Of a DNA stretch of 64,000 nt, positions 51,888 to 64,000 are shown one piece after another. Numbering within the stretch: position 1 is the stretch's first letter; each line of letters opens with the position of its first letter. Position numbers and translations under genes: made by a program. Where the stretch lies: sequence record PZ583738.1. One strand, given 5' to 3'. Source of the DNA: a phage. Under the pieces are notes generated by a model. It had not been told where the DNA came from. It was given only the letters and a program-made list of their open reading frames with translations, and ran no database searches.

Positions 51888-52119
51888 AGAATATGTTGAG
51901 ACCGCCGAAAGAGTGGTCCGTGAATTAACTCTGGCCTATTATAAAGAACACGGTAAATTTCCGGATAGTTATTCGGTATTGAAATCCGCTTTAACTCGTT
52001 CGTATAATAATATCCTTACTGAAGTGCATGATATCAGAAATGCACACCTTAAAGAAACCGGGACAGAGCTAGACCGCTCTGAAGTATTCAAACAAGTATT
52101 AGGAATTCAAGATGTTTAA
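51874..52119 (+). CDS. hypothetical small protein
   Basis: 81 aa. Confidence 0.45.
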
Positions 52120-52375
52120 AGTATATGGTTACGATTCAAACATTCATCGTTGCGTTTTCTGTGACAATGCAAAACGTTTACTTGACGTTAAAAAACAACC
52201 TTACGAGTTCATCAATGTTATGCCGGAAAAAGGTGTATTTGATGATGAGAAGATTGCTCAACTCCTGGCTGCGCTTGGTCGCGAATCTCAAATTGGTTTG
52301 ACCATGCCACAGGTATTTGCCCCAGACGGAAGTCATATTGGTGGCTTCGACCAACTGCGAGCATATTTCAAATGA
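52112..52375 (+). CDS. nrdC: thioredoxin/glutaredoxin NrdC
   Basis: 87 aa; [43 protein letters not shown] nearly identical to T4 NrdC; CVFC active site. Confidence 0.95.
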
Positions 52376-52539
52376 TTGAATTAATGTTGGGTGTTTTGTA
52401 TCTTATCATCGGTATTGGCTATGCTAAGACCCTAGCTAAATTAGATGATTTCGGTGCAGGTGATTTTTGTTGGTGGCTGACGTCTATGATTTGTTGGCCT
52501 TTATTTCTGGTCGGTGCTTCATTCTGGAACTTTAAATGA
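52372..52539 (+). CDS. small membrane protein
   Basis: 55 aa; ATGA overlap with nrdC stop; not in ORF track. Confidence 0.3.
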   Translation: MIELMLGVLYLIIGIGYAKTLAKLDDFGAGDFCWWLTSMICWPLFLVGASFWNFK

Positions 52540-52561
52540 TTGACGAATTTATGGTGGAATT

Positions 52562-52870
52562 ATGAGTGAATTAGACGGACAAACAATTTATCTGGGTGAC
52601 GGTAAAGAAGACGACCTGGAACATAAACTCTATGAATACATGGTAGCCCTGGCGAAAGAAGAAGGTATTGACTTTGCTGTGGCTAACCCGTATGGTGAGA
52701 ACACTGTTGTAATTGGTGGCACTGCTTATGAAGTCCAATGGCAATACGTTGGCCTTGAATCTGAAATATATGAAGAAGATAAGCATGGTGATTGGCATCC
52801 GGTTGGTCCTTGGTACTGGGACGACGGCGAGCCTGATTTTGAAGTAAGTTGTTATTGGTGTGACCGTTAA
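52562..52870 (+). CDS. hypothetical acidic protein
   Basis: 102 aa; SD GGTGGA. Confidence 0.5.
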   Translation: MSELDGQTIYLGDGKEDDLEHKLYEYMVALAKEEGIDFAVANPYGENTVVIGGTAYEVQWQYVGLESEIYEEDKHGDWHPVGPWYWDDGEPDFEVSCYWCDR

Positions 52871-53540
52871 GCCTACTAAAACCTTAGACGAAATTAAAGA
52901 ACTTCTTAAAAGCAAATTGCCAATAAGGCAATTTGCTGAAAACTATTTCTCTTTAATAGAGTCTTCCGGACCTTTAATAAAAGGTAAAACCGAGTCTCAC
53001 CATATATTACCTAAATCGTTATTTCCTGAATTTAAAACGTCTAAATGGAATCTTGTAAATCTAAGTATAGAAAGCCATATTATGGCCCACTATTGGTTGG
53101 CCAAATCAGGAAACTATAAAATGGGATATGCTTTATCTAGAATGGGTGTACAGATAGATAAAATACCAGGACAATTAGACCTTAAAATTCTAAAAGAAAT
53201 AAACCACTTAAAGCATGAAGCTAAAGCCAGTCTTGATAGGAGTAAATACACCATTGAGCTTTTTGGCGCATTTGATTTAAGTTCAGGTGAATTGGTAGAA
53301 ACCTTTGATTATTTACCAGATGCAGCTAAATTTCTTTCAATTTATAAAGCAGGCAGTGCTATTAAAAGATGCCTTCTTAATGAGAGAAATCATACATTTG
53401 GATATGCTTGGAAATATATTACTTATGATGAATTTGGTAATCCGGTTACTAATATAGCTAATTTGATTGCCGCTGATTTAGAAAGGACCAGAGCTAGAAG
53501 AAAAGCTGCTTCTGATGCTAGGAAAAAGAATAATGAATAA
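52860..53540 (+). CDS. HNH family homing endonuclease (Mob-like)
   Basis: 226 aa; TESHHILPKSLFPEF..NLVNLSIESHIMAHYW is an HNH motif; apparent GTG start. Confidence 0.65.
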   Translation: MTVKPTKTLDEIKELLKSKLPIRQFAENYFSLIESSGPLIKGKTESHHILPKSLFPEFKTSKWNLVNLSIESHIMAHYWLAKSGNYKMGYALSRMGVQIDKIPGQLDLKILKEINHLKHEAKASLDRSKYTIELFGAFDLSSGELVETFDYLPDAAKFLSIYKAGSAIKRCLLNERNHTFGYAWKYITYDEFGNPVTNIANLIAADLERTRARRKAASDARKKNNE

Positions 53541-53656
53541 ACCTTGGTTTGTATGTAGATTTGAAACTGTCGAGCCAGAGGAACCTGTTTACAACGATTC
53601 CGAAATAGATTATAATGAACCTTCAAACAATGATTTAATTGATATGGAGTTTGGAT

Positions 53657-53830
53657 ATGAGTACCAAAATTGAAGTTGGCCGTCATAAAGGCCGTCTGAT
53701 TGAGCATTCGCTTTACGAATTGTCGGATTCTCGTAAGTTACCCGATGAAGAATCTGCTTTAATTTTTGCTGCAGCTGACTACATTCATTGGCTTGAAGCT
53801 CAACTCCGCTTTTCTGATGAGGCCTTTTAA
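53657..53830 (+). CDS. hypothetical small protein
   Basis: 57 aa from ATG 53657 with SD GGAG. Confidence 0.35.
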   Translation: MSTKIEVGRHKGRLIEHSLYELSDSRKLPDEESALIFAAADYIHWLEAQLRFSDEAF

Positions 53831-54102
53831 TGTTTTTAGAAATTGTTAATATTCATGCTGCTGCTCAATCAGGTTTTATGAAAGAGCTTCAAGACGCAGG
53901 ATTTAAAAATGGCGATGTTATCCAGGCGTTAAGACAACGTTTTGACCCTGATGTTGAATGTAATGTTTGGGACGTTGTTGAAACAGATGAATACCTTTTT
54001 GATACCATAGAAATTGAAGGGTCATGGGCCTGTATCACTGAGTATATGATAATTGATAATGGTAACGTTGACTGCCATTATCCTTGTTTTAGGATTGTTT
54101 AA
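53830..54102 (+). CDS. hypothetical small protein
   Basis: 90 aa. Confidence 0.45.
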   Translation: MFLEIVNIHAAAQSGFMKELQDAGFKNGDVIQALRQRFDPDVECNVWDVVETDEYLFDTIEIEGSWACITEYMIIDNGNVDCHYPCFRIV

Positions 54103-54278
54103 TGAAAACTGCATTAGTCTATACCGAAAAGTTAAACGGTGGCAAGGTCTGGAAACTCCTTATCAAAGGAAGTCCTACTGACCAGTTTATGGCCACCTGT
54201 GTGGGATTGTATACTCGTCCTACCAAAAAGATGATTCGTCAATTTAAACGGTTACACCGTTCGTTCTATGGGGTCTGA
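54102..54278 (+). CDS. hypothetical small basic protein
   Basis: 58 aa; TAATG overlap; not in ORF track. Confidence 0.3.
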   Translation: MKTALVYTEKLNGGKVWKLLIKGSPTDQFMATCVGLYTRPTKKMIRQFKRLHRSFYGV

Positions 54279-54377
54279 TATGGATGCTCTTATTACGGTA
54301 TTTTGGGCCGGAGTTGCTTTATTCGGATTGTTGTTAGTGCTAAGTTGCACTGCTAAACTATTAGGATATTAATAAAT

Positions 54378-54402
54378 ACCCTTATCTAATAATGGTAAGG
54401 GT
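54378..54402 (+). promoter_or_regulatory. stem-loop sequestering the gene 49 ribosome-binding site
   Basis: Inverted repeat ACCCTTA..TAAGGGT; 3' arm overlaps the SD just before ATG 54408. Confidence 0.4.
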
Positions 54403-54407
54403 TTATT

Positions 54408-54881
54408 ATGTTGTTGACTGGCAAATTATACAAAGAAGAAAAACAAAAACTTTATGATGCACAAGCTGGTAAGTGTCCAATTTGCCACCGTTATTTGGAC
54501 TCTGATGTTCAGGCTAACCATCTTGACCATGACCACGAATTGAACGGACCAAAAGCCGGTAAGGTTCGCGGGTTACTATGCAATCTGTGCAATGGAACAG
54601 AAGGACAAATGAAGCATAAGTTCAGCCGTTCGGGTCTAAAAAGTCGCGATGTTGACTACCTGGAATGGTTAGAGAGTTTGCTTGTCTATCTGAAATCTGA
54701 TTATACCGAAAACAATATCCACCCTAATTTTGTAACAGACAAAGCCAAAGAGTTTGGTCGTCTGGGGAAAGAAGAAATGATTCGGGAAATGCTTTTGAAT
54801 GGTATGACTTATAATGAATCTGACACCAAAACACAATTAATGGCTTCATTTAAGAAGCAGCTTAGAAAGAGTTTAAAATGA
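54408..54881 (+). CDS. 49: endonuclease VII (Holliday junction resolvase)
   Basis: 157 aa; MLLTGKLYKEEKQKLYDAQAGKCPICHR..LDHDHELNGPKAGKVRGLLCNLCN nearly identical to T4 gp49. Confidence 0.95.
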   Translation: MLLTGKLYKEEKQKLYDAQAGKCPICHRYLDSDVQANHLDHDHELNGPKAGKVRGLLCNLCNGTEGQMKHKFSRSGLKSRDVDYLEWLESLLVYLKSDYTENNIHPNFVTDKAKEFGRLGKEEMIREMLLNGMTYNESDTKTQLMASFKKQLRKSLK

Positions 54882-56695
54882 CAATTGAAAACGAAATTGA
54901 AGGATTGATTCATAAAACCAATAAAGACCTTTTAAACGAGAATGCTAATAAAGATTCTCGTGTTTTTCCAACTCAACGTGACCTTATGGCTGGTATTGTA
55001 TCTAAACACATTGCCAAAAATATGGTCGCGTCTTTTATTATGAAAGCACATGAAAGCGGAATTATTCATTTCCATGATATTGATTATTCCCCTGCTCTTC
55101 CATTTACTAATTGTTGTTTAGTAGATTTAAAAGGAATGCTTGAGAACGGGTTTAAGCTCGGTAATGCACAGATTGAAACTCCTAAATCAATCAGTGTTGC
55201 TACTGCAATTATGGCACAAATTACTGCACAGGTTGCTTCCCATCAATATGGCGGAACGACTTTTGCGAATGTAGATAAAGTACTTTCTCCTTATGTTAAA
55301 CGTACCTATGCGAAACATATTGAGGACGCGGAAAAATGGCAAATCACTGATGCGTTGAATTATGCCCAATCTAAAACAGAAAAAGACGTATACGATGCAT
55401 TCCAAGCTTATGAATATGAAGTAAATACTCTCTTTAGCTCAAATGGTCAGACTCCTTTTGTGACAATTACATTTGGTACCGGAACTGACTGGACCGAACG
55501 AATGATTCAGAAAGCAATTCTGAAAAATCGTATTAAAGGTCTTGGTCGTGATGGGATAACTCCTATTTTCCCTAAACTTGTTATGTTCGTTGAAGAAGGT
55601 GTTAATCTTTATAAAGACGACCCGAACTATGATATTAAGCAGCTTGCTTTAGAGTGTGCAAGCAAAAGAATGTATCCTGATATCATTTCAGCTAAGAATA
55701 ACAAAGCTATCACTGGTTCATCTATTCCTGTTTCTCCAATGGGTTGCCGTAGTTTCTTGGGCGTATGGAAAGATTCGACTGGTAATGAAATTCTTGATGG
55801 ACGTAATAATCTTGGTGTTGTAACACTTAATCTTCCTCGTATTGCGTTAGATTCTTATATTGGAACACAGTTCAATGAACAGAAATTTACTGAATTGTTC
55901 AATGAGCGAATGGATTTATGTTTTGAAGCTTTGATGTGTAGAATTAGTTCCTTAAAAGGAGTTAAAGCGACTGTTGCTCCTATTCTTTACCAAGAAGGTG
56001 CATTTGGGGTTCGTCTTAAACCTGATGACGATATAATTGAGTTATTTAAAAACGGTAGAAGTTCAGTGTCCCTAGGATACATTGGTATTCACGAATTGAA
56101 TATTCTTGTCGGTCGTGATATTGGACAGGAAATTTTGACTAAAATGAATGCTCGTCTTAAGCAGTGGACCGAAAGAACCGGATTTGCTTTTAGCTTGTAT
56201 TCTACTCCTGCTGAAAACCTGTGTTATCGCTTCTGTAAACTCGATGCCGAAAAATATGGAAGTGTAAAAGATGTTACCGATAAAGGCTGGTACACTAATA
56301 GTTTCCACGTTTCAGTAGAAGAAAATATTACTCCGTTTGAAAAGATTTCTCGCGAAGCCCCATATCATTTCATTGCAACAGGTGGTCACATTTCTTATGT
56401 TGAACTTCCTGATATGAAAAATAACCTAAAAGGTCTTGAGGCTGCATGGGATTATGCTGCACAACATTTAGATTATTTTGGTGTTAATATGCCAGTAGAT
56501 AAATGTTTTACGTGTGGAAGTACTCATGAAATGACTCCTACTGAAAACGGATTTGTTTGTTCCATTTGTGGAGAAACTGACCCTAAAAAGATGAACACAA
56601 TAAGAAGAACATGCGGCTATTTGGGGAATCCGAACGAACGTGGATTTAATCTCGGCAAAAATAAAGAAATCATGCATAGGGTTAAACATCAATGA
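54878..56695 (+). CDS. nrdD: anaerobic ribonucleoside-triphosphate reductase
   Basis: 605 aa; glycyl-radical motif RTCGYLGNP near C-terminus, zinc ribbon CFTCGS..CSICG; same length as T4 NrdD. Confidence 0.95.
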   Translation: MTIENEIEGLIHKTNKDLLNENANKDSRVFPTQRDLMAGIVSKHIAKNMVASFIMKAHESGIIHFHDIDYSPALPFTNCCLVDLKGMLENGFKLGNAQIETPKSISVATAIMAQITAQVASHQYGGTTFANVDKVLSPYVKRTYAKHIEDAEKWQITDALNYAQSKTEKDVYDAFQAYEYEVNTLFSSNGQTPFVTITFGTGTDWTERMIQKAILKNRIKGLGRDGITPIFPKLVMFVEEGVNLYKDDPNYDIKQLALECASKRMYPDIISAKNNKAITGSSIPVSPMGCRSFLGVWKDSTGNEILDGRNNLGVVTLNLPRIALDSYIGTQFNEQKFTELFNERMDLCFEALMCRISSLKGVKATVAPILYQEGAFGVRLKPDDDIIELFKNGRSSVSLGYIGIHELNILVGRDIGQEILTKMNARLKQWTERTGFAFSLYSTPAENLCYRFCKLDAEKYGSVKDVTDKGWYTNSFHVSVEENITPFEKISREAPYHFIATGGHISYVELPDMKNNLKGLEAAWDYAAQHLDYFGVNMPVDKCFTCGSTHEMTPTENGFVCSICGETDPKKMNTIRRTCGYLGNPNERGFNLGKNKEIMHRVKHQ

Positions 56696-57162
56696 ATTAT
56701 GATAGAATTTATCCTTGCGATTTTGTGAATGGCCCTGGTTGTAGGGTCGTTCTTTTCGTTACAGGTTGTTTGCATAAATGCGAAGGGTGTTATAATAAAT
56801 CAACATGGAATGCTAGAAATGGTGTTCCATTCACTGGTGAAACACTAAAACAATTAATTGAATGTTTGAATAATGATTATATAGAAGGATTAACTATAAC
56901 TGGAGGAGACCCTCTCTATCCTGATAACCGAGATGTTATTCACTCTGTGGTTCAAACTATTAAAAATCTTTATCCCAATAAAAGCATTTGGATGTGGACA
57001 GGATATAAGTTTGAAGATATTAAACAACTAGAAATGCTTAAATATGTTGATGTTATTATTGATGGGAAGTATGAGAAAAATCTTCCGACCAAAAAGTTGT
57101 GGCGAGGATCAGATAATCAGCGACTTTGGTCAAATACCGATGGGGTGTGGAAACATGATTAA
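56692..57162 (+). CDS. nrdG: anaerobic ribonucleotide reductase activating protein (radical SAM)
   Basis: 156 aa; cysteine cluster CDFVNGPGCRVVLFVTGCLHKCEGCYN; ATGA overlap with nrdD. Confidence 0.9.
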   Translation: MNYDRIYPCDFVNGPGCRVVLFVTGCLHKCEGCYNKSTWNARNGVPFTGETLKQLIECLNNDYIEGLTITGGDPLYPDNRDVIHSVVQTIKNLYPNKSIWMWTGYKFEDIKQLEMLKYVDVIIDGKYEKNLPTKKLWRGSDNQRLWSNTDGVWKHD

Positions 57163-57276
57163 ATTGAATTATATTATGGATACTATAAATGATATGGTTT
57201 TTCATTTTGGTCCAGAATTTTATTCGCAGTATAGTTTAGTGCTTATCAATGCTTGGTTAATCAATTAAGGGTAAAT

Positions 57277-57492
57277 ATGGATAAATTTAGAAATGCTGTT
57301 TCTGATATCCTGGCCAATATTACATTTGTCCTGTTTGTTGTGTGCCTTTTAATCCTGGTCATCCCATTTGGATTGCTGTTTGTGATGATTGGTGCCCTGA
57401 GTACTGAAAAGGGCCTTGAAGGGTCTGAGTTCGACAAACGAATCCAGGCTGTCCATAGTGTTATTGCTAAAATGATGAAGGTGAAAGAATGA
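57277..57492 (+). CDS. small membrane protein
   Basis: 71 aa from ATG 57277; one transmembrane helix. Confidence 0.4.
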   Translation: MDKFRNAVSDILANITFVLFVVCLLILVIPFGLLFVMIGALSTEKGLEGSEFDKRIQAVHSVIAKMMKVKE

Positions 57493-57788
57493 AACGTTTT
57501 GAAGAATATGTAGCTACTAATTGGACCGCATGGGACAAGTTCGGTGATGAATGGTACTTCCATGACTGCGACCTGAACCCGGAATTCTTTGTCGGTAAGG
57601 AAGAAGACCTTAAAGACATCTATGCTCTATCAGAGATTCATGGAATCAAACCGACGGTTTATTTCTCTTTCGATGACACGGGTTTCCTTATTCAGGTTTA
57701 TGTTCCATACAAAACCGTTGATGATGAAGAAGTTATTAAAACCTGGAACTACCAAGGAGTGATTTCCTGTGGGCCAAAACTCGACTAA
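57489..57788 (+). CDS. hypothetical protein
   Basis: 99 aa. Confidence 0.5.
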   Translation: MKRFEEYVATNWTAWDKFGDEWYFHDCDLNPEFFVGKEEDLKDIYALSEIHGIKPTVYFSFDDTGFLIQVYVPYKTVDDEEVIKTWNYQGVISCGPKLD

Positions 57789-58086
57789 GATTGAAATCTA
57801 TGGTATCCCCGAAGAAGTCGGTCGATGCCCTGGTTGTATGCACGTCAGGAGCCTTCTGGGCTCCTTAAACCTTCCCTATACATTCTATTCAGTCCTTAAC
57901 AAACAAGGCTCTGAAATCGCTTATGACAGGCCTTTAATCGTGTCTCTTGCTAAGCGTGCTGGATATCCTACCCTTAACATTCGTTACCCGGTGATTTTTG
58001 TCAATGATGAAAAAATGACCAATATTCCTGCCTTTAAAACAAAACTGATATCCCTGGGGTATGACCAGGACTTAATTGAAGATTAA
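57769..58086 (+). CDS. glutaredoxin-like protein (NrdH-like)
   Basis: 105 aa; KIEIYGIPEEVGRCPGCMH has thioredoxin-fold CPGC active site; apparent GTG start with SD AAGGAG. Confidence 0.6.
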   Translation: MGQNSTKIEIYGIPEEVGRCPGCMHVRSLLGSLNLPYTFYSVLNKQGSEIAYDRPLIVSLAKRAGYPTLNIRYPVIFVNDEKMTNIPAFKTKLISLGYDQDLIED

Positions 58087-58092
58087 AAAGGG

Positions 58093-58128
58093 GTGTACAA
58101 GCTCCTTTGAATGATGTATCATTATCCC
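58093..58128 (+). promoter_or_regulatory. early promoter with stem-loop (PeSL-like cassette)
   Basis: -35 GTGTAC, 18-nt spacer, -10 TATCAT inside palindrome AATGAT-GT-ATCATT; leader TATCCCATCAACCACTGA. Confidence 0.5.
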
Positions 58129-58153
58129 ATCAACCACTGATGAGGAAAACATA

Positions 58154-58336
58154 ATGACTATTAACGGTAAAGAAATTAAAGTTAACCAGTATTATTCGGT
58201 AAATGGCCATGTGGTCCAAGTAACTCAATTATCAAGTCTGGATGTATGGTATCGCATTTTGGGTTGGCCTGATGCACCCTTGATGGTATGTGACCGTGGT
58301 GTATTTTGTTCAGTAGCTAAGGAAATTAAATTATGA
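58154..58336 (+). CDS. hypothetical small protein
   Basis: 60 aa; SD GAGGAAAA. Confidence 0.45.
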   Translation: MTINGKEIKVNQYYSVNGHVVQVTQLSSLDVWYRILGWPDAPLMVCDRGVFCSVAKEIKL

Positions 58337-58587
58337 GCCTGAAATTACATTCAATGAAAAATGTCGCCACCCTTAATCTTGATGATGAGCGCCTGATTTT
58401 TATCACCGTCACTGATAAGAATATTGAAATTGCAAATGGTCCTAAGACTTATTGTTGCCCAGTGAAGAATTGGAAACATGTAACCTTTTTGACCCTGGGT
58501 GACCGTCTGAAAGACCTTAAGTTGGATTTGGATGTCAAAGATATCCAGTACATTAAAAATCTTATTGGATACAAACTGCTGAGGTAA
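58333..58587 (+). CDS. hypothetical small protein
   Basis: 84 aa; ATGA overlap. Confidence 0.45.
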   Translation: MSLKLHSMKNVATLNLDDERLIFITVTDKNIEIANGPKTYCCPVKNWKHVTFLTLGDRLKDLKLDLDVKDIQYIKNLIGYKLLR

Positions 58588-58589
58588 CT

Positions 58590-58883
58590 ATGGGTAAAAC
58601 TATTCGTCGCAAAGAATTGTCTGTAAAAGATTTTTATTATTCAGGACGCCGTCAGGCACCTGATGGTGTAAGTCAGGAACAAGTTGAAGAAAATATCTTC
58701 CGTTCAGACAAATGGAAGCGTATGCGTGGTGTTGATTCTGAAGTTAAGAATGAAATGAATCGCCAGCTTCGTAAAGAAGTTCGTCAGTTGAAAAAAGATG
58801 TATACGTTGAGGATGATTTGGATTATAATACTTCTCATCTTGTTGCAAAACGTAAATCAAACGAGTGCTATCGTTACAGCTGA
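58590..58883 (+). CDS. hypothetical basic protein
   Basis: 97 aa; SD GAGG. Confidence 0.5.
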   Translation: MGKTIRRKELSVKDFYYSGRRQAPDGVSQEQVEENIFRSDKWKRMRGVDSEVKNEMNRQLRKEVRQLKKDVYVEDDLDYNTSHLVAKRKSNECYRYS

Positions 58884-58890
58884 GGAAAAC

Positions 58891-59022
58891 ATGAATATCA
58901 AACGAATGCTTTTTAAACAAGGATTATACGCTTTAAATTCTGCTCCAAAAGGCGATACAACTAAGTGGTCAGTAAATGACTGGATTAAATTTATTGATGA
59001 AAACGGTAACTGGAAAATTTAA
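58891..59022 (+). CDS. hypothetical very small protein
   Basis: 43 aa from ATG 58891 with SD GAGGAAAA. Confidence 0.3.
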   Translation: MNIKRMLFKQGLYALNSAPKGDTTKWSVNDWIKFIDENGNWKI

Positions 59023-59220
59023 ATGAATCCTGAATCTAAATTATCACAGCGAATTGCTGAATCTCGTCGTCAGTTCTTTGAAAATATGATAGCTCAAGGT
59101 ATTGATGATGAAGTTTTTCTGAACTGGTTTTGGAATCACAAATATTCAAGTTGCTCGGGGGCTTTGTTAATTTCCGCCGCAATGATGTACGAAGGCTGGA
59201 AAGGTGCTAAAGCGCAGTAA
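59023..59220 (+). CDS. hypothetical small protein
   Basis: 65 aa; TAAATG junction. Confidence 0.45.
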   Translation: MNPESKLSQRIAESRRQFFENMIAQGIDDEVFLNWFWNHKYSSCSGALLISAAMMYEGWKGAKAQ

Positions 59221-59292
59221 AAACCAACGGGGCCATGGTATAATGACCCCAGGATAATAAAATTTTAATTTAATGAGACTGAGGAATATATC

Positions 59293-59619
59293 ATGACTGC
59301 ATCTATCACTAACATCATCGCTAATTTCGCATTTGCTAAAGTTAACACTCTGATGAAATCTGGTTTTGTTACCCCTGAGATTCTGGACCAGTGGGAAGGC
59401 GATGTACAGAAACTGATTATTGCAGAAGGTCAGACAATGGGTAAAGCGCGTATTCGTGAAAGCCTTGTCCAGTATATCCTGAACGAATTTGATGTAGTAG
59501 CGTTTGGTCTGCCGCTTCTGCGCGAAAACAAAGAAGTTTCTGATAAAGCTATCAAGCGTATGAAGTCCCAGCGCAAGAAAGGTTTTGTTGACCTGAAAAT
59601 TGTTAAGGGTGCGAAATGA
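59293..59619 (+). CDS. hypothetical protein
   Basis: 108 aa; SD GAGGAA; TATAAT preceded by GGGG..CCCC inverted repeat upstream. Confidence 0.5.
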   Translation: MTASITNIIANFAFAKVNTLMKSGFVTPEILDQWEGDVQKLIIAEGQTMGKARIRESLVQYILNEFDVVAFGLPLLRENKEVSDKAIKRMKSQRKKGFVDLKIVKGAK

Positions 59620-59864
59620 ATAATTTACCAGAAGGTGTATCAGCCATAATCGTCCTTAAAGCTTTATCTGGTTTCCAACGTACATCTATGATGGTTAATA
59701 GTGAAACTATTATAAAAGAGGCTAAGAGGCTACGTGGAAGTCATTATGATTTCAGGATACTTCCTATAAGCTCTAAGACCACTTATATGAAAATGCCTGA
59801 CCCTAAAATAGCTTGGGCGGAAGGCATGACATTAGACGAATTCCTGGACTACTTAAATGATTAA
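59616..59864 (+). CDS. hypothetical small protein
   Basis: 82 aa; ATGA overlap. Confidence 0.45.
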   Translation: MNNLPEGVSAIIVLKALSGFQRTSMMVNSETIIKEAKRLRGSHYDFRILPISSKTTYMKMPDPKIAWAEGMTLDEFLDYLND

Positions 59865-59897
59865 AATAAAACTCTCTAATTACGATAAAAACTGGAA

Positions 59898-60122
59898 ATG
59901 ATTACTATGAAAGAAGAACTCCTGAATGATGTACGTCTGGCGGGTTATGCAGTTCAATTTAATGATGTTGGTGTTCTCCAGATTGAAGGTGACCACTTTA
60001 TTATTGAATATGAATTCCATCAGTATTGGTTGTATGCCAAAGATGAAGTAGGTGGGATTGATTATGTTGACCAGTTTGATAAGCTTGACGATGTTTTAGA
60101 AGCTGCTCAGATGGTGTACTGA
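59898..60122 (+). CDS. hypothetical small acidic protein
   Basis: 74 aa. Confidence 0.45.
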   Translation: MITMKEELLNDVRLAGYAVQFNDVGVLQIEGDHFIIEYEFHQYWLYAKDEVGGIDYVDQFDKLDDVLEAAQMVY

Positions 60123-60388
60123 TGCACATCAATCATACAATGATATCCGTCCAGGACCTGGGAACGTTTTGGGTGGATGAATTTATGAAAATAACATTCT
60201 TCCCGCACGCAGAAGGGTATGGCTCTTGGGAGTCCCATATCGGTATGCTGAATGAAGGGCAATACCGCAACGAACATGACCGCCTGATGGAATTCATTAG
60301 CGATGCCGAGGTTATTCCTTATATTGACATTCATGAATTTAAGGCAATTATGGAGAAGGTCTTTCAGGCTTACTGTTTACTTCGCTAA
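60122..60388 (+). CDS. hypothetical small protein
   Basis: 88 aa; ATGA-type overlap. Confidence 0.45.
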   Translation: MHINHTMISVQDLGTFWVDEFMKITFFPHAEGYGSWESHIGMLNEGQYRNEHDRLMEFISDAEVIPYIDIHEFKAIMEKVFQAYCLLR

Positions 60389-60413
60389 TGCTTTGTATTA
60401 AGGATGATATAAT
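60389..60413 (+). promoter_or_regulatory. middle promoter (MotA box TGCTTTG + -10 TATAAT) upstream of gene 55
   Basis: AATGCTTTG then 14 nt then TATAAT, 24 nt before gene 55 ATG. Confidence 0.4.
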
Positions 60414-60436
60414 ATTCATATACTAAGCGAGGCGAT

Positions 60437-60994
60437 ATGAACGAAATTAAATTAACCAAGAATAACTATGTAAATAATAAAGAGCTTCTGAAAGCTATTT
60501 CGGAGTGGAAACAGAAGCTGAATGCGAACACCGACCCGAATAAAATTATTCGCCAGAACGATGTTATTGGTCTGGCAATTATGCTTATAGCCGAAGGTCT
60601 TAGCAAACGTTTCAACTTCTCCGGATATACCCAATCCTGGAAGCAAGAAATGATTGCAGACGGAATTGAGGCCGCAATAAAAGGTCTTCATAACTTCGAC
60701 GAAACAAAATACGATAATCCACATGCTTACATAACAATGGCTTGCTTCAATGCTTTCGTTCAGCGTATCAAAAAAGAACGTAAAGAAATGGCAAAGAAAT
60801 ATAGCTACTTCGTTCATAACGTGTATGATTCACGTGACGACGATATGGTGGCTCTGGCTGATGAAACATTTATCCAGGACATCTATGACAAAATGACACA
60901 GTACGAATCCTCTTTAGTTAAAGCGCCAGGGTCTGATAAGAGCGCCAAAGATAAAGAAGGTGATTTGGATTTTTTATATGGAACATCAATTTGA
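60437..60994 (+). CDS. 55: late transcription sigma factor gp55
   Basis: 185 aa; [75 protein letters not shown] nearly identical to T4 gp55. Confidence 0.95.
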
Positions 60995-61211
60995 TATTAC
61001 CGATTTTTTAGATAAAATCGAGGAAGACTTTACTGCGCTCCCATATTTCATTAAACTTTATCTGCGAGACATAAAAGGTCTTCCAATTGATATCGACCCT
61101 TTAAACGTCCGGAATTTGGAATTTACTTCGCCGGATAATAACGTTGATTACCGTTATCATGTGGATAATGCTAATCTATATTTTACAATTGAGTTAACTC
61201 CCAAGGATTAA
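60978..61211 (+). CDS. hypothetical small protein
   Basis: 77 aa from ATG 60978; overlaps end of gene 55 by 17 nt. Confidence 0.4.
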
Positions 61212-61212
61212 T

Positions 61213-61524
61213 ATGCAAGCTCCAGATATTTCTCAACTGACCGATAAGCAGATTGAAGAAGCACAGGAACGTCTCGAAGAAGCGAACGCGCTCGAAGCAA
61301 CCAGTCAAGCAGCAAAGATTCTGAAAAAGAATGCTCGTGAAATTGCACGACTGAATAAGCATGCTCAAGGGGCGGTGCTGGAAAACAATTTTGAAGCATA
61401 CAAATATGCTTTAGTTAAACTGCGTGGAATTTACCGCCAACCAGTTACGGAAGACCTGATTAAGTTGATGTGGGAAACTACTCGCAAACAAATTTGGGAA
61501 ATCGTAAATGGCATTAGTAAATAA
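61213..61524 (+). CDS. hypothetical coiled-coil protein
   Basis: 103 aa. Confidence 0.5.
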   Translation: MQAPDISQLTDKQIEEAQERLEEANALEATSQAAKILKKNAREIARLNKHAQGAVLENNFEAYKYALVKLRGIYRQPVTEDLIKLMWETTRKQIWEIVNGISK

Positions 61525-61708
61525 ACCTTTTAAACGGCTTCTTGTTGGAGCCGCTTTCAGACTTCGCTCATACGGTAATATCTGTATCAAGCAGACCGAA
61601 ACCGAATATAAAATGGTTGGGCAGTATTCTGATGGTATTTTTCAGATTGAGCCCGTGGCCAAGGTTTGGGTGGATTCACATCAACTTAAGAAGTGGTGGC
61701 AGCGATGA
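61508..61708 (+). CDS. hypothetical small protein
   Basis: 66 aa. Confidence 0.45.
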   Translation: MALVNKPFKRLLVGAAFRLRSYGNICIKQTETEYKMVGQYSDGIFQIEPVAKVWVDSHQLKKWWQR

Positions 61709-61789
61709 ATATCGGTTGCTTTGAAGACGAACACCCGGATTTTTAAACTTATGAATGACGAATACGAAAAAGTTTAAGAGGCTATATGA

Positions 61790-61963
61790 ATGACGAATTC
61801 GACGGATTTTGATAAGATTAAATCTGACAAAAATGAGATGATACTTCAATTTGAAGCCGCTCGTATTAAAGCAGAAAATGAAGGTACTATTACCCATAAG
61901 AAAATCAAGTTCAAGTCTAATCGCGAACCTCTGTATGGTGTATTAATTGGAAAGGAAGCCTAG
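61790..61963 (+). CDS. hypothetical small protein
   Basis: 57 aa; stop codon lies in loop of following terminator. Confidence 0.35.
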   Translation: MTNSTDFDKIKSDKNEMILQFEAARIKAENEGTITHKKIKFKSNREPLYGVLIGKEA

Positions 61964-61978
61964 TGCTTCCTTTTTTGC
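61954..61978 (+). terminator. rho-independent terminator
   Basis: GGAAGC-CTAGT-GCTTCC hairpin followed by TTTTTT. Confidence 0.7.
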
Positions 61979-62020
61979 TTTATATTCGGGATGATAAAAT
62001 GAACCAACTGAGGAGAGTAT

Positions 62021-62164
62021 ATGGAATTATTTTTAGGATATGTCGTGTTATTCATGGCATTCTACACATTCACACGAGCTTGTTGGATAGGATTCTTTTC
62101 TACTCCTGACGGGTTCATTTCAATAATTTTATTTTGCATTGCGATAATGGCGCTTGGCTTATGA
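62021..62164 (+). CDS. small membrane peptide
   Basis: 47 aa; SD GAGGAG; two hydrophobic segments; ATGA overlap with gene 47. Confidence 0.3.
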   Translation: MELFLGYVVLFMAFYTFTRACWIGFFSTPDGFISIILFCIAIMALGL

Positions 62165-63180
62165 AAATTTTAAATTTAGGTGATTGGCACTTAGGTGTCA
62201 AAGCTGACGACCCATGGGCTCAAAACATTCAACGTGATGGTATTTTACAGGCGATTGCATATTCTAAGGCGAATGGAATTAAAGTCTGGATTCAATATGG
62301 TGATATCTTTGACGTCCGTAAGGCCGTAACGCATAAGACGATGGAATTCAGTCGCGAGATTATGGAACTCCTTCGTGAAGCAGGAATTACTATGCACACG
62401 ATAGTCGGGAACCATGACATGAATCTGAAGAATAAGATTCATCCTAATGCTATCACCGAACTCCTGAATAAGTATGACCATGTTAAAATCTACGACAAGC
62501 CAACGACTGTTGATTTTGACGGCTGTCAGATTGATATGATTCCATGGATGTGTGACGAGAACGCGACTGACATTCATCAACACATCAAAACTTCTGGTGC
62601 TGAATATTGCATTGGTCACTGGGAATTGTCCGGGTTTTATTTCTATAAAGGATTGAAATCCCACGGGCTTGAGCCTGATTTCCTTAAGAAGTACAAGCAA
62701 GTTTGGTCTGGACACTTCCATACCATTTCAGAAGCTGCAAACGTTAAGTACATAGGGACACCATGGACATTAACAGCAGGTGATGAGAATGACCCTCGTG
62801 GGTTTTGGGAATTTGACACCGAAACCGAAGAGATGAAATTTATTCCGAATGAAACCACCTGGCATCGGAAGATTTTCTATCCAAACGAAACTATTAACTA
62901 CGACGACTTTAAAGACTTATCAGTCCGTGTTATTGTAGAAAAAGTCGATAAAGACCTGACCAAGTTTGAATCTGAATTAGAAAAGCGCGTGCATGATTTG
63001 CGTGTGGTCAATAAGGTTGACAATAGTGTTGATACGACTGACTCCGAAGAAGAGTTAGACATAAAACGCTTAACTGATATGATGGCAGAATATATCGATG
63101 CATTACCTGATGCCAATGAGAAAGAATCAAAAGCTCTCAAAGCATTGGCCAACAAATTATATCTTGAGGTGCAACCGTGA
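62161..63180 (+). CDS. 47: recombination endonuclease subunit gp47 (Mre11-like)
   Basis: 339 aa from ATG 62161; MKILNLGDWHLG phosphoesterase motif I, GNHDM motif; length equals T4 gp47. Confidence 0.9.
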   Translation: MKILNLGDWHLGVKADDPWAQNIQRDGILQAIAYSKANGIKVWIQYGDIFDVRKAVTHKTMEFSREIMELLREAGITMHTIVGNHDMNLKNKIHPNAITELLNKYDHVKIYDKPTTVDFDGCQIDMIPWMCDENATDIHQHIKTSGAEYCIGHWELSGFYFYKGLKSHGLEPDFLKKYKQVWSGHFHTISEAANVKYIGTPWTLTAGDENDPRGFWEFDTETEEMKFIPNETTWHRKIFYPNETINYDDFKDLSVRVIVEKVDKDLTKFESELEKRVHDLRVVNKVDNSVDTTDSEEELDIKRLTDMMAEYIDALPDANEKESKALKALANKLYLEVQP

Positions 63181-63440
63181 GACTTTACGATTTTAATGAA
63201 GCGGGGCTTGAGCATATCCGCGAATGTGATGTGGTTGACGACGATAATCAACCGAATACTATTAAGTATTGGTTTGAAGCTATCACCGACCGGGAAACCG
63301 GTCAACTTATCAAAGTCTATGTAGTCACCGATTGGGCCGTAGAATTTAGCTTTAATGTAATGGAAGATGATACTCCAGAGACATTAATTCATATGGCTGA
63401 ATCATGCATCAAGGATGCTTATTATGATGAAGACTTTTGA
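63177..63440 (+). CDS. hypothetical small acidic protein (46.1 position)
   Basis: 87 aa; apparent GTG start overlapping gene 47 stop. Confidence 0.4.
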   Translation: MRLYDFNEAGLEHIRECDVVDDDNQPNTIKYWFEAITDRETGQLIKVYVVTDWAVEFSFNVMEDDTPETLIHMAESCIKDAYYDEDF

Positions 63441-63633
63441 ATTTAATCTTGATGATGAATTTGTAGCAAATATTGATTATACCGAAGAAAATTCTAGATA
63501 TGTCGGAATAATTTATATCACATCAAAAACGGCGCAGGGAGTGGTTTGCATGGCTGAATTTGATGAATGCTTTTTAGATTATGATGATATGATAGAATGG
63601 TCTAAAAGATACATTAAAAGGAATCTTTTGTGA
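63415..63633 (+). CDS. hypothetical small protein (46.2 position)
   Basis: 72 aa. Confidence 0.4.
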   Translation: MLIMMKTFEFNLDDEFVANIDYTEENSRYVGIIYITSKTAQGVVCMAEFDECFLDYDDMIEWSKRYIKRNLL

Positions 63634-64000
63634 AGACTTTTAAGCTTAAGAAAGTTATCTATAAAAATATTATGTCGGTTGGTGCTCAACCGATTACTGT
63701 TGAACTGGATAAAGTCCAGAAAACTCTGGTCACCGGCAAGAATGGCGCGGGTAAATCTACGTTCCTTGAAGCGGTTACCTTTGCTATGTTCGGTAAGCCT
63801 TTCCGTGATGTAAAGAAAGGCCAGTTGATTAACTCGAGCAACAAAAAAGATATGCTCGTTGAATTGTGGATGGAATATGATGGAAAAGAATACTATATCA
63901 AACGCGGGCAAAAACCCAATGTTTTTGAAATCTCTTGTGGCGGTAAACGTCTTGATGAATCTGCCAGCAGTAAAGACTTCCAAGCGGAATTTGAACAGCT
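63630..64000 (+). CDS. 46: recombination endonuclease subunit gp46 (Rad50-like ATPase), N-terminal part, truncated by window end
   Basis: Walker A LVTGKNGAGKSTFLEA; KTFKLKKVIYKNIMSVG..ELWMEYDGKEYYIKRGQKPNVFEI closely matches T4 gp46 N-terminus; apparent GTG start; frame open to window end. Confidence 0.85.
   Translation, partial: MKTFKLKKVIYKNIMSVGAQPITVELDKVQKTLVTGKNGAGKSTFLEAVTFAMFGKPFRDVKKGQLINSSNKKDMLVELWMEYDGKEYYIKRGQKPNVFEISCGGKRLDESASSKDFQAEFEQ

Follow-up and report, generated by a model that had tools for sequence, protein, structure and literature searches.

In Escherichia coli, initiation at GUG and UUG codons with a Shine-Dalgarno (SD) sequence is established, as is re-initiation at overlapping stop and start codons, and GTG accounts for approximately 14% of the starts. 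In phage T4, gene 46 and nrdH are annotated with GTG starts in the RefSeq entry NC_000866. The T4 mobA gene is predicted to have a GUG start (Edgell, Gibb and Belfort 2010, PMC2988022). According to the same paper, in half of the free-standing endonuclease genes of T4 an initiation region cannot be recognised and the gene overlaps with the ORF ahead of it, an arrangement suggestive of translational coupling (PMC2988022).

The window, that is, the whole stretch of 64,000 nucleotides analysed here, is from a Gaprivervirus-type T4-like phage and is approximately 96% identical to Escherichia phage DK-13. Its GTG-started genes fall in the block that corresponds to nrdC–49–nrdD–nrdG–nrdH–55–47–46 of T4.

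Overall features of the GTG-started genes

A preliminary description of the window had assigned non-ATG starts to three genes: an HNH endonuclease, nrdH (with the SD sequence AAGGAG) and gene 46. The ORF check bore out the coordinates and frames of these three GTG codons (52860, 57769 and 63630, respectively), and the SD sequence of nrdH was also confirmed (Table 1). The observation is real, but the count was incomplete: gene 46.2, with a GTG at 63177, had been overlooked. The number of GTG-started genes in the stretch is therefore four. When base rates were taken locally, GTG was the start codon of 4 of 34 CDS in the stretch as annotated in DK-13, and of 4 of 45 CDS in the matching T4 region. 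This share is unremarkable beside that of E. coli.

Table 1. Positions of the GTG-started genes, their neighbours and their initiation signals in the window
Feature	Position	Strand	Remarks
Gene 49.3 homologue	52562..52870	+	Last codons hold the endonuclease GTG in another frame
ORF of the Mob-type HNH homing endonuclease (226 aa)	52860..53540	+	GTG 52860-52862; PHROG 655; annotated GTG in DK-13 and VR7
Gene 49.1, re-created 3' of the endonuclease	53533..53673	+	PHROG 2382; new ATG
ORF ahead of nrdH (PHROG 2749)	57489..57788	+	Overlaps the nrdH start by 20 nt
nrdH SD sequence, AAGGAG	57754..57759	+	9-nt spacer to GTG; inside the upstream ORF
nrdH, 105 aa; probable glutaredoxin/thioredoxin-fold protein with CPGC	57769..58086	+	GTG 57769-57771
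Gene 46.2, GTG start	63177..63440	+	Overlaps the stop codon of gene 47 (GTGA); GAGGT 6 nt upstream
Gene 46.1 (DUF5487)	63427..63633	+	SD sequence of gene 46 lies in its 3' end; GTGA overlap with gene 46
Gene 46 SD sequence, AAGGA	63618..63622	+	7 nt upstream of GTG
Gene 46, 5' part (Rad50/SbcC-like ATPase)	63630..64000	+	GTG 63630-63632; ORF runs past the window end

In-frame stop codons lie two to four codons 5' of all four GTGs, and each GTG is the sole canonical start ahead of the conserved N-terminus. It had been claimed that no in-frame ATG would preserve the conserved N-termini. This is correct: ATG first occurs in frame at codon 75 in the endonuclease, codon 24 in nrdH and codon 15 in gene 46. 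In gene 46.2, it first occurs at codon 62.

The comparison with relatives supports the interpretation in the preliminary description, and the GTG starts of the endonuclease, nrdH, 46.2 and 46 appear to be genuine on this basis. GTG starts in such genes are already known, being annotated alike in T4 and in close relatives. The Gaprivervirus phages DK-13 (MT611523) and vB_EcoM_VR7 (NC_014792; VR7 hereafter) share both the endonuclease and its site, the GTG being annotated as its start, and the DK-13 annotation also gives GTG for nrdH, 46.2 and 46. These two phages show approximately 4% nucleotide divergence from the window, including a 5-nt cluster in codons 21–23 of the endonuclease. A literature search for N-terminal or ribosome-profiling data on T4 gp46 or NrdH found none, nor did it yield protein-level or ribosome-footprint evidence for any of the four starts.

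nrdH

An in-frame stop codon is located two codons 5' of the nrdH GTG, and the first in-frame ATG comes straight after the CPGC motif (residues 20–23). The product is 70% identical to T4 NrdH and has two more residues at the N-terminus. It matched PHROG 22 ("thioredoxin domain") with E=5.7e-11, and its score against Pfam PF00462 was 21.6 bits, the cut-off being 22.9 bits. No solved structural relative of NrdH was found by sequence. The gene upstream differs between the two phages: it is the PHROG 2749 ORF in the window and 55.8 in T4.

Most close relatives start nrdH with GTG or TTG, whereas distant relatives use ATG, which is five codons further in. TTG was observed in three loci. GTG was retained in five sequence groups, even though the second codon differs among them (G, D, K or E). 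The start position is GTG, TTG or ATG in approximately 44 of the 46 loci.

Genes 46.2, 46.1 and 46

Positions 1–85 of the PHROG 2192 profile match residues 1–86 of the gene 46.2 product. The start of 46.2 is GTG in DK-13 and ATG in phage SP18 at the same codon; this difference from SP18 is a single transition, silent in gene 47. Gene 46.1 starts with ATG in the window and with GTG in T4. It is bracketed by an 11-nt direct repeat, TGAAGACTTTT, at 63428–63438 and 63631–63641.

In gene 46, an in-frame stop codon is found four codons 5' of the GTG. This GTG had been described as sitting where the T4 protein begins; it aligns exactly with the GTG annotated for T4, and the observation is thus already contained in the T4 annotation. 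The 40 nt 5' of the GTG are identical in T4 and the window, including the AAGGA sequence and the GTGA overlap with 46.1, and gp46 of the window is 78% identical to T4 gp46 over 123 aa. The homologous first codon is a start in all 24 close loci (14 ATG, nine GTG and one TTG), in which stop codons occur 1–18 codons 5' of it and the sequences ahead of it show no relationship. In SP18, the very codon that is GTG in the window is ATG.

Residues 2–86 of Rad50 (1F2T) align to residues 5–92 of gp46, and the Pfam matches to SMC_N and AAA_23 begin at residues 6–8 (AAA_23, E=1.7e-13 from residue 8). An ABC-ATPase lobe containing Walker A is present from the first residues of gp46. Initiation at the ATG of codon 15 would truncate this domain, because the Rad50 and Pfam alignments begin at residues 5–8.

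The gene 46 start is GTG in seven of seven loci that have the 3' end of 46.1, versus three non-ATG starts in the 17 others (Fisher p=3.5e-4, for loci that are not phylogenetically independent). The GTG of gene 46 would travel with this 3' end, relatives without 46.1 having ATG except in the three loci mentioned. A constraint from the overlaps was also considered as the cause of GTG in 46 and 46.2, and was rejected: a G-to-A change is silent in the upstream genes (TTG to TTA and CCG to CCA), and SP18 has CCATGA.

Endonuclease ORF and its insertion site

The endonuclease matched PHROG 655 ("homing endonuclease") with E=3.5e-28 over residues 2–120, the alignment starting at residue 2, and PHROG 12434 ("HNH endonuclease") with E=4.2e-14. 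No Pfam family was matched at E<=0.01. The motif HHILPKS...NLVNLS...H..AH is present, with 46 residues ahead of the HH pair (residues 47 and 48) compared with 43–50 in homologues. In frame, the upstream stop codon ends at 52847, four codons 5' of the GTG, and the first ATG is past the HH...N...H motif. The tblastn matches include MobD-like, MobC-site and MobE-annotated genes. Identity to other Mob-type proteins is 29–57% over parts of the length, and the nuclease function is predicted. The copies in the window, DK-13 and VR7 are the only three and are near-identical, and the assignment of the start is based on one comparison and the family alignment. Two near-cognate codons, ATT at codon 12 and TTG at codon 20, might conceivably act as minor starts.

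In several respects the endonuclease resembles the Mob genes of T4: it is a promoter-less cassette in the orientation of its neighbours, its initiation region is weak or lacking, and it overlaps with the upstream ORF, which suggests coupling. No late promoter (TATAAATA) feeding it was found on the + strand between 50000 and 64000. The insertion site is different from those of T4 Mob genes; it is 49.3|49.1, where the endonuclease replaces 49.2. Among close relatives, the endonuclease is present or absent at this fixed site, and three alleles of the 49.3–49.1 interval were found. The interval contains the endonuclease in the window, DK-13 and VR7, contains 49.2 in SP18, UPEC01 and T4, and is empty in RZ and dhaeg.

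In the endonuclease-free phages RZ and dhaeg, GTGACCGTTAAGCC is followed by 49.1, and the same GTG heads 49.1; RZ-type 49.1 DNA carries GTGACCGTTAAGCCATGGTATACCGCTCGATGG. The GTG and the first five codons of the endonuclease are those of 49.1 in these relatives. It seems that the endonuclease took over its GTG start from the gene that it displaced, 49.1. Capture of a host gene's start by the homing cassette would account both for its GTG and for the lack of a separate ribosome-binding site. The 49.1 gene of the window has recoded N-terminal codons, MNKPWFVCRF in place of VTVKPWYTARW in RZ. Sharing of the first codons with the downstream gene is likewise observed for T4 mobC and nrdG. It should be mentioned that the GTG-started 49.1 of dhaeg was left unannotated.

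Initiation signals

SD sequences are located 6–9 nt upstream of the GTGs of nrdH, 46.2 and 46. The anti-SD duplex energies are -8.0, -6.9 and -5.6 kcal/mol, which rank within the top 0.8%, 1.7% and 7.8%, respectively, of the energies at random positions. No SD sequence was found for the endonuclease, for which the anti-SD duplex energy is -0.9 kcal/mol. The SD spacing and the ATGA/GTGA-type overlaps are like those in non-AUG initiation of E. coli, and nothing distinctive was found in the comparison.

All four GTGs are within 20 nt of the stop codon of the upstream gene, so that re-initiation is possible at each of them. Terminating ribosomes could re-initiate at the nearby GTG, the overlap being GTGA in 46 and 46.2. 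The endonuclease overlaps with gene 49.3 by 11 nt, and the TAA of 49.3 (52868–52870) is 8 nt past the GTG. Since an SD sequence is lacking and the 49.3 stop is overlapped, coupling is the probable route for the endonuclease, and gene 49.3 is its likely partner as judged from this arrangement.

RNA structures that sequester the starts were considered and rejected: the 91-nt folds at the four GTGs were no more stable than shuffled sequences (z -0.9 to +1.2). Nothing in the RNA structure at these starts therefore points to regulation. In addition, the internal GTG start known for T4 gene 49 is not conserved, codon 53 being GTT in the window.

Alternative interpretations

It is very unlikely that shortened proteins are translated from the first internal ATGs, with the GTGs being incidental in untranslated or overlapping sequence. 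In-frame ATGs do exist at the codons given above, and that of gene 46 is ahead of Walker A, so that the motif would be left intact in a possible shorter product. However, these starts would cost the endonuclease the HH of its HNH motif, NrdH its CPGC redox motif and gp46 the first β-strand region of the Rad50-type ATPase. Furthermore, the sequence 5' of the ATGs is conserved at the protein level and differs from T4 at synonymous sites, and relatives invariably have a start at the homologous first codon in the survey of gene 46 and, apart from Pectobacterium phage PM2, in that of nrdH. In PM2, the PHROG 2749 homologue and nrdH are fused in frame (199 aa), with no separate nrdH start. This fusion raised the possibility that the endonuclease, nrdH or both are extensions of the upstream ORF produced by frameshifting, or relics of a fusion. 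Both ORFs are indeed +1 relative to the overlapping upstream gene. Against this, neither a slippery motif nor a stimulatory structure was seen, the nrdH SD sequence is strong and correctly spaced, and its GTG is conserved across genera, including T4, in which the upstream ORF is absent. The PM2 fusion is known from one genome only, in which a sequencing error of 1 nt could have produced it. A frameshift or fusion origin is accordingly judged to have very little probability.

The endonuclease ORF could also be a decaying, essentially untranslated remnant, its GTG being merely host sequence at the insertion junction. The missing SD sequence and Pfam match would fit such a remnant, as would its length, which is less than the 279–286 aa of homologues, and the occurrence of GTGACC in SP18, in which no gene starts with it. 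However, the ORF is intact and keeps the HH...N...H motif and a C-terminal DNA-binding-like segment. Purifying selection evidently acts on it, as judged from the comparison with DK-13 and VR7 (13.3 synonymous and 4.7 non-synonymous differences; pN/pS 0.09). The fact that the same GTG and five codons head 49.1 in RZ and dhaeg also argues against a remnant, which is considered improbable.

The four GTGs are most probably GUG initiation codons of the ordinary bacterial type, decoded by the initiator tRNA in phage genes that are densely packed and overlap. We infer that these codons initiate translation, that coupling takes place and that GUG lowers expression.

Start-codon identity and mobile cassettes

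The use of GTG rather than ATG here would reflect history. Mob-type genes would enter a host gene a few codons after its start, seize its initiation region and start codon, whether ATG or GTG, and supply the displaced gene with a replacement ATG and recoded N-terminal codons. Three junctions show this pattern: 49.3|49.1 in the window, nrdD|nrdG in T4 and F25, and 46.1|46 in Aplg8. The gene 46 GTG would move with a laterally exchanged 46.1 cassette. The chances seem about even that start-codon identity in this block is fixed by gain and loss of cassettes, in which case the GTG/ATG flips would be footprints of mobile elements and not tuned expression signals. This reading was not found stated in the accessible literature but may well be known to specialists.

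For annotation, automated callers may choose internal ATGs in GTG-started genes, and small GTG-started phage genes get missed, as in the case of 49.1 in dhaeg. The capture and replacement of starts by homing-endonuclease cassettes may be of interest to researchers of phage mobile elements. In the phage itself, the GUG starts probably hold the nuclease subunits and the homing endonuclease at modest levels.

Genomic context

When nucleotides 52000-64000 were compared by megablast, 1167 phage records were matched. The best match was Escherichia phage DK-13 (95.9% identity, 94% coverage); vB_EcoM_RZ, VR20 and SP18 were also among the best matches, all of which belong to the genus Gaprivervirus (Straboviridae, Tevenvirinae). 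The T4 block nrdC, 49.3, (49.2), 49.1, 49, nrdD, nrdG, 55.8, nrdH, 55.x, 55, a-gt.x, 47, 46.2, 46.1, 46 lies on the + strand of the window.

GTG start codons

The preliminary description proposed GTG starts for nrdH, the HNH endonuclease and gene 46, with no ATG that would preserve their N-termini. The three codons are at the positions and in the frames claimed, and a fourth GTG-started gene, 46.2, had been missed. Beginning at the first in-frame ATG removes the HH of the HNH motif from the endonuclease, the CPGC motif from nrdH and 14 conserved residues from gene 46. The proposed AAGGAG Shine-Dalgarno sequence of nrdH was located at 57754-57759, 9 nt upstream of the GTG. The gene 46 GTG was also said to be the T4 start; the T4 reference record has GTG there, and the 40 nt upstream are identical. 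The GTG-start observation is confirmed, and its reading as initiation is supported by comparison with relatives.

Genes with GTG starts in the window
Gene	Location	In-frame stop upstream	First in-frame ATG	Upstream context
HNH endonuclease	GTG 52860	4 codons	codon 75	
nrdH	GTG 57769	2 codons	codon 24	
46.2	63177..63440 (GTG start)			GTGA overlap with gene 47 stop; GAGGT 6 nt upstream
46	GTG 63630	4 codons	codon 15	

GTG is annotated in T4 for gene 46, nrdH, 46.1 and an internal start of gene 49, in DK-13 for the endonuclease, nrdH, 46.2 and 46, and in VR7 for the endonuclease. Locally, GTG-started CDSs number 4/34 in DK-13, 1/35 in SP18 and 4/45 in T4. Since E. coli uses about 14% GTG, this frequency is unremarkable.

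It should be mentioned that window 54564-54566 (gene 49 codon 53), the site of the T4 internal GTG, is GTT. The T4 internal start, annotated for the short form of endonuclease VII, is apparently not conserved in the window phage.

Comparison of nrdH, 46.2 and gene 46

In the nrdH comparison (46 loci), GTG at the V-x-Q position is kept in five sequence groups (the window, JS98, T4, "VEQNSNLKNK" and "VENQSLK" types) with a variable second codon; three further loci offer TTG alone. Distant relatives have an ATG start, their proteins opening with the pattern M-K-[IV]-E-[IV]-Y-G-I-P. For 46.2, the corresponding SP18 codon is ATG, and positions 1-85 of the PHROG 2192 profile align with residues 1-86.

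Gene 46 was compared among 24 close IMG/VR loci with 65% identity or more. At the codon corresponding to 63630, 14 of them have ATG, nine GTG and one TTG; SP18 has ATG exactly there. An in-frame stop precedes this codon by 1-18 codons, and the sequences upstream are unrelated. Several distant T4-superfamily homologues (loci L030, L032-L034, L038-L040) seemingly lack an N-terminal ATG and show an apparent TTG or GTG after a GGAG-type Shine-Dalgarno sequence; non-ATG starts may be recurrent for gene 46.

The GTG of gene 46 is associated with the DUF5487 gene 46.1. Nucleotide identity between T4 and the window is 91% for 46.1 and 71%, 59% and 76% for genes 47, 46.2 and 46, respectively. This island (window 63427-63641; T4 locus L003, 10982-11188) ends just past the gene 46 GTG and is flanked by an 11-nt direct repeat, TGAAGACTTTT, at 63428-63438 and 63631-63641 (expected occurrences in the window, 0.03). 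SP18, VR25 and VR26 lack 46.1, and their gene 46 starts ATG-AAG-ACT-TTT. GTG is present in all seven surveyed loci having the 46.1 3' end and ATG in 14 of the 17 others (Fisher p=3.5e-4, for linked loci that are not independent events). The island, the repeat and the ATG of relatives without 46.1 suggest that 46.1 was laterally exchanged, or else that it was deleted between the two repeat copies. The idea that the overlap forces GTG was rejected for genes 46 and 46.2: a G-to-A change at the gene 46 start would be silent in 46.1 (TTG to TTA), and one at the 46.2 start would be silent in gene 47 (CCG to CCA).

Origin of the endonuclease start

Outside the window, the endonuclease gene was found only in DK-13 and VR7. 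The interval between 49.3 and 49.1 has three alleles: 49.2 (T4, SP18, UPEC01), the endonuclease (window, DK-13, VR7) or neither (RZ, dhaeg). In RZ (L092, 661-711) and dhaeg (L093, ~460-480), 49.1 starts ...GGT GTG ACC GTT AAG CCA TGG TAT..., giving (V)TVKPWY. Its first 14 nt are GTGACCGTTAAGCC, which in the window occupies 52860-52873 and is followed by the endonuclease body. The window 49.1 is re-created downstream of the endonuclease, where it starts at a new ATG at 53533 (53533-53580) and is recoded (MNKPWFVCRF versus VTVKPWYTARW). Therefore, the endonuclease uses the start of the displaced gene. The same start-capture architecture is seen in T4 mobC and the F25 endonuclease, which have 7 and 13 codons in common with nrdG, and in the Aplg8 endonuclease, which takes the gene 46 GTG and VKNFKL, gene 46 being re-created with ATG.

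No Shine-Dalgarno sequence was found upstream of the endonuclease GTG (-0.9 kcal/mol). The GTG is 8 nt ahead of the 49.3 stop codon, the layout that would be expected for translational coupling. This agrees with a review of T4 endonucleases, according to which half of the free-standing genes overlap the ORF ahead of them and show no recognisable initiation region; T4 mobA is likewise predicted to start at GUG (PMC2988022). A second GTG lies 2 bases upstream, followed immediately by TGA (GUGUGA, 52858-52863); this third-frame start-stop is probably incidental.

Initiation and alternative explanations

Standard GUG initiation by fMet-tRNA would operate at the GTG starts, and at nrdH, 46.2 and 46 Shine-Dalgarno pairing would assist it. 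Terminating ribosomes would re-initiate at overlapping stop/start sites, and the endonuclease would likely rely on coupling alone. No unusual RNA structure was found around any of the four starts. GUG gives a lower yield than AUG as a general rule (e.g. PMC5499595) and may do so in these genes.

Translation from internal ATGs conflicts with the comparative evidence and is very improbable. In gene 46, P. furiosus Rad50 residues 2-86 align with product residues 5-92, and Pfam SMC_N and AAA_23 begin at residues 6-8; therefore, a start at ATG-15 would truncate the domain. Frameshift or fusion products, just as improbable, were considered because in Pectobacterium phage PM2 (L068/L095, 283-882) nrdH forms an in-frame fusion with the homologue of its upstream neighbour, a PHROG 2749 ORF of unknown function, and the whole is annotated as a single 199-aa "glutaredoxin" (window counterpart, 57489-58086). 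This is one of the 46 loci, a single genome, and reflects either a functional link of both ORFs or a 1-nt sequencing error; the comparative evidence is again contrary. That the endonuclease is decaying and untranslated is unlikely, though slightly less so, and also conflicts with comparison. The PHROG 655 (homing endonuclease) alignment begins at residue 2, and 46 residues precede the HH motif versus 43-50 in ATG-started homologues. Relative to DK-13/VR7, the ORF carries 13.3 synonymous and 4.7 non-synonymous differences (pN/pS 0.09), so purifying selection acts on the frame.

In dhaeg, the GTG-started 49.1 ORF (VTVKPWYVARWETTEPEEP...) lies unannotated between CDSs 163-471 and 588-761, and it exemplifies missed small GTG genes. 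The T4 and DK-13/VR7 annotations already record these GTG starts, which are ordinary biology; the modest interest is limited to the missed fourth GTG gene and to the link of start-codon identity to cassette history.
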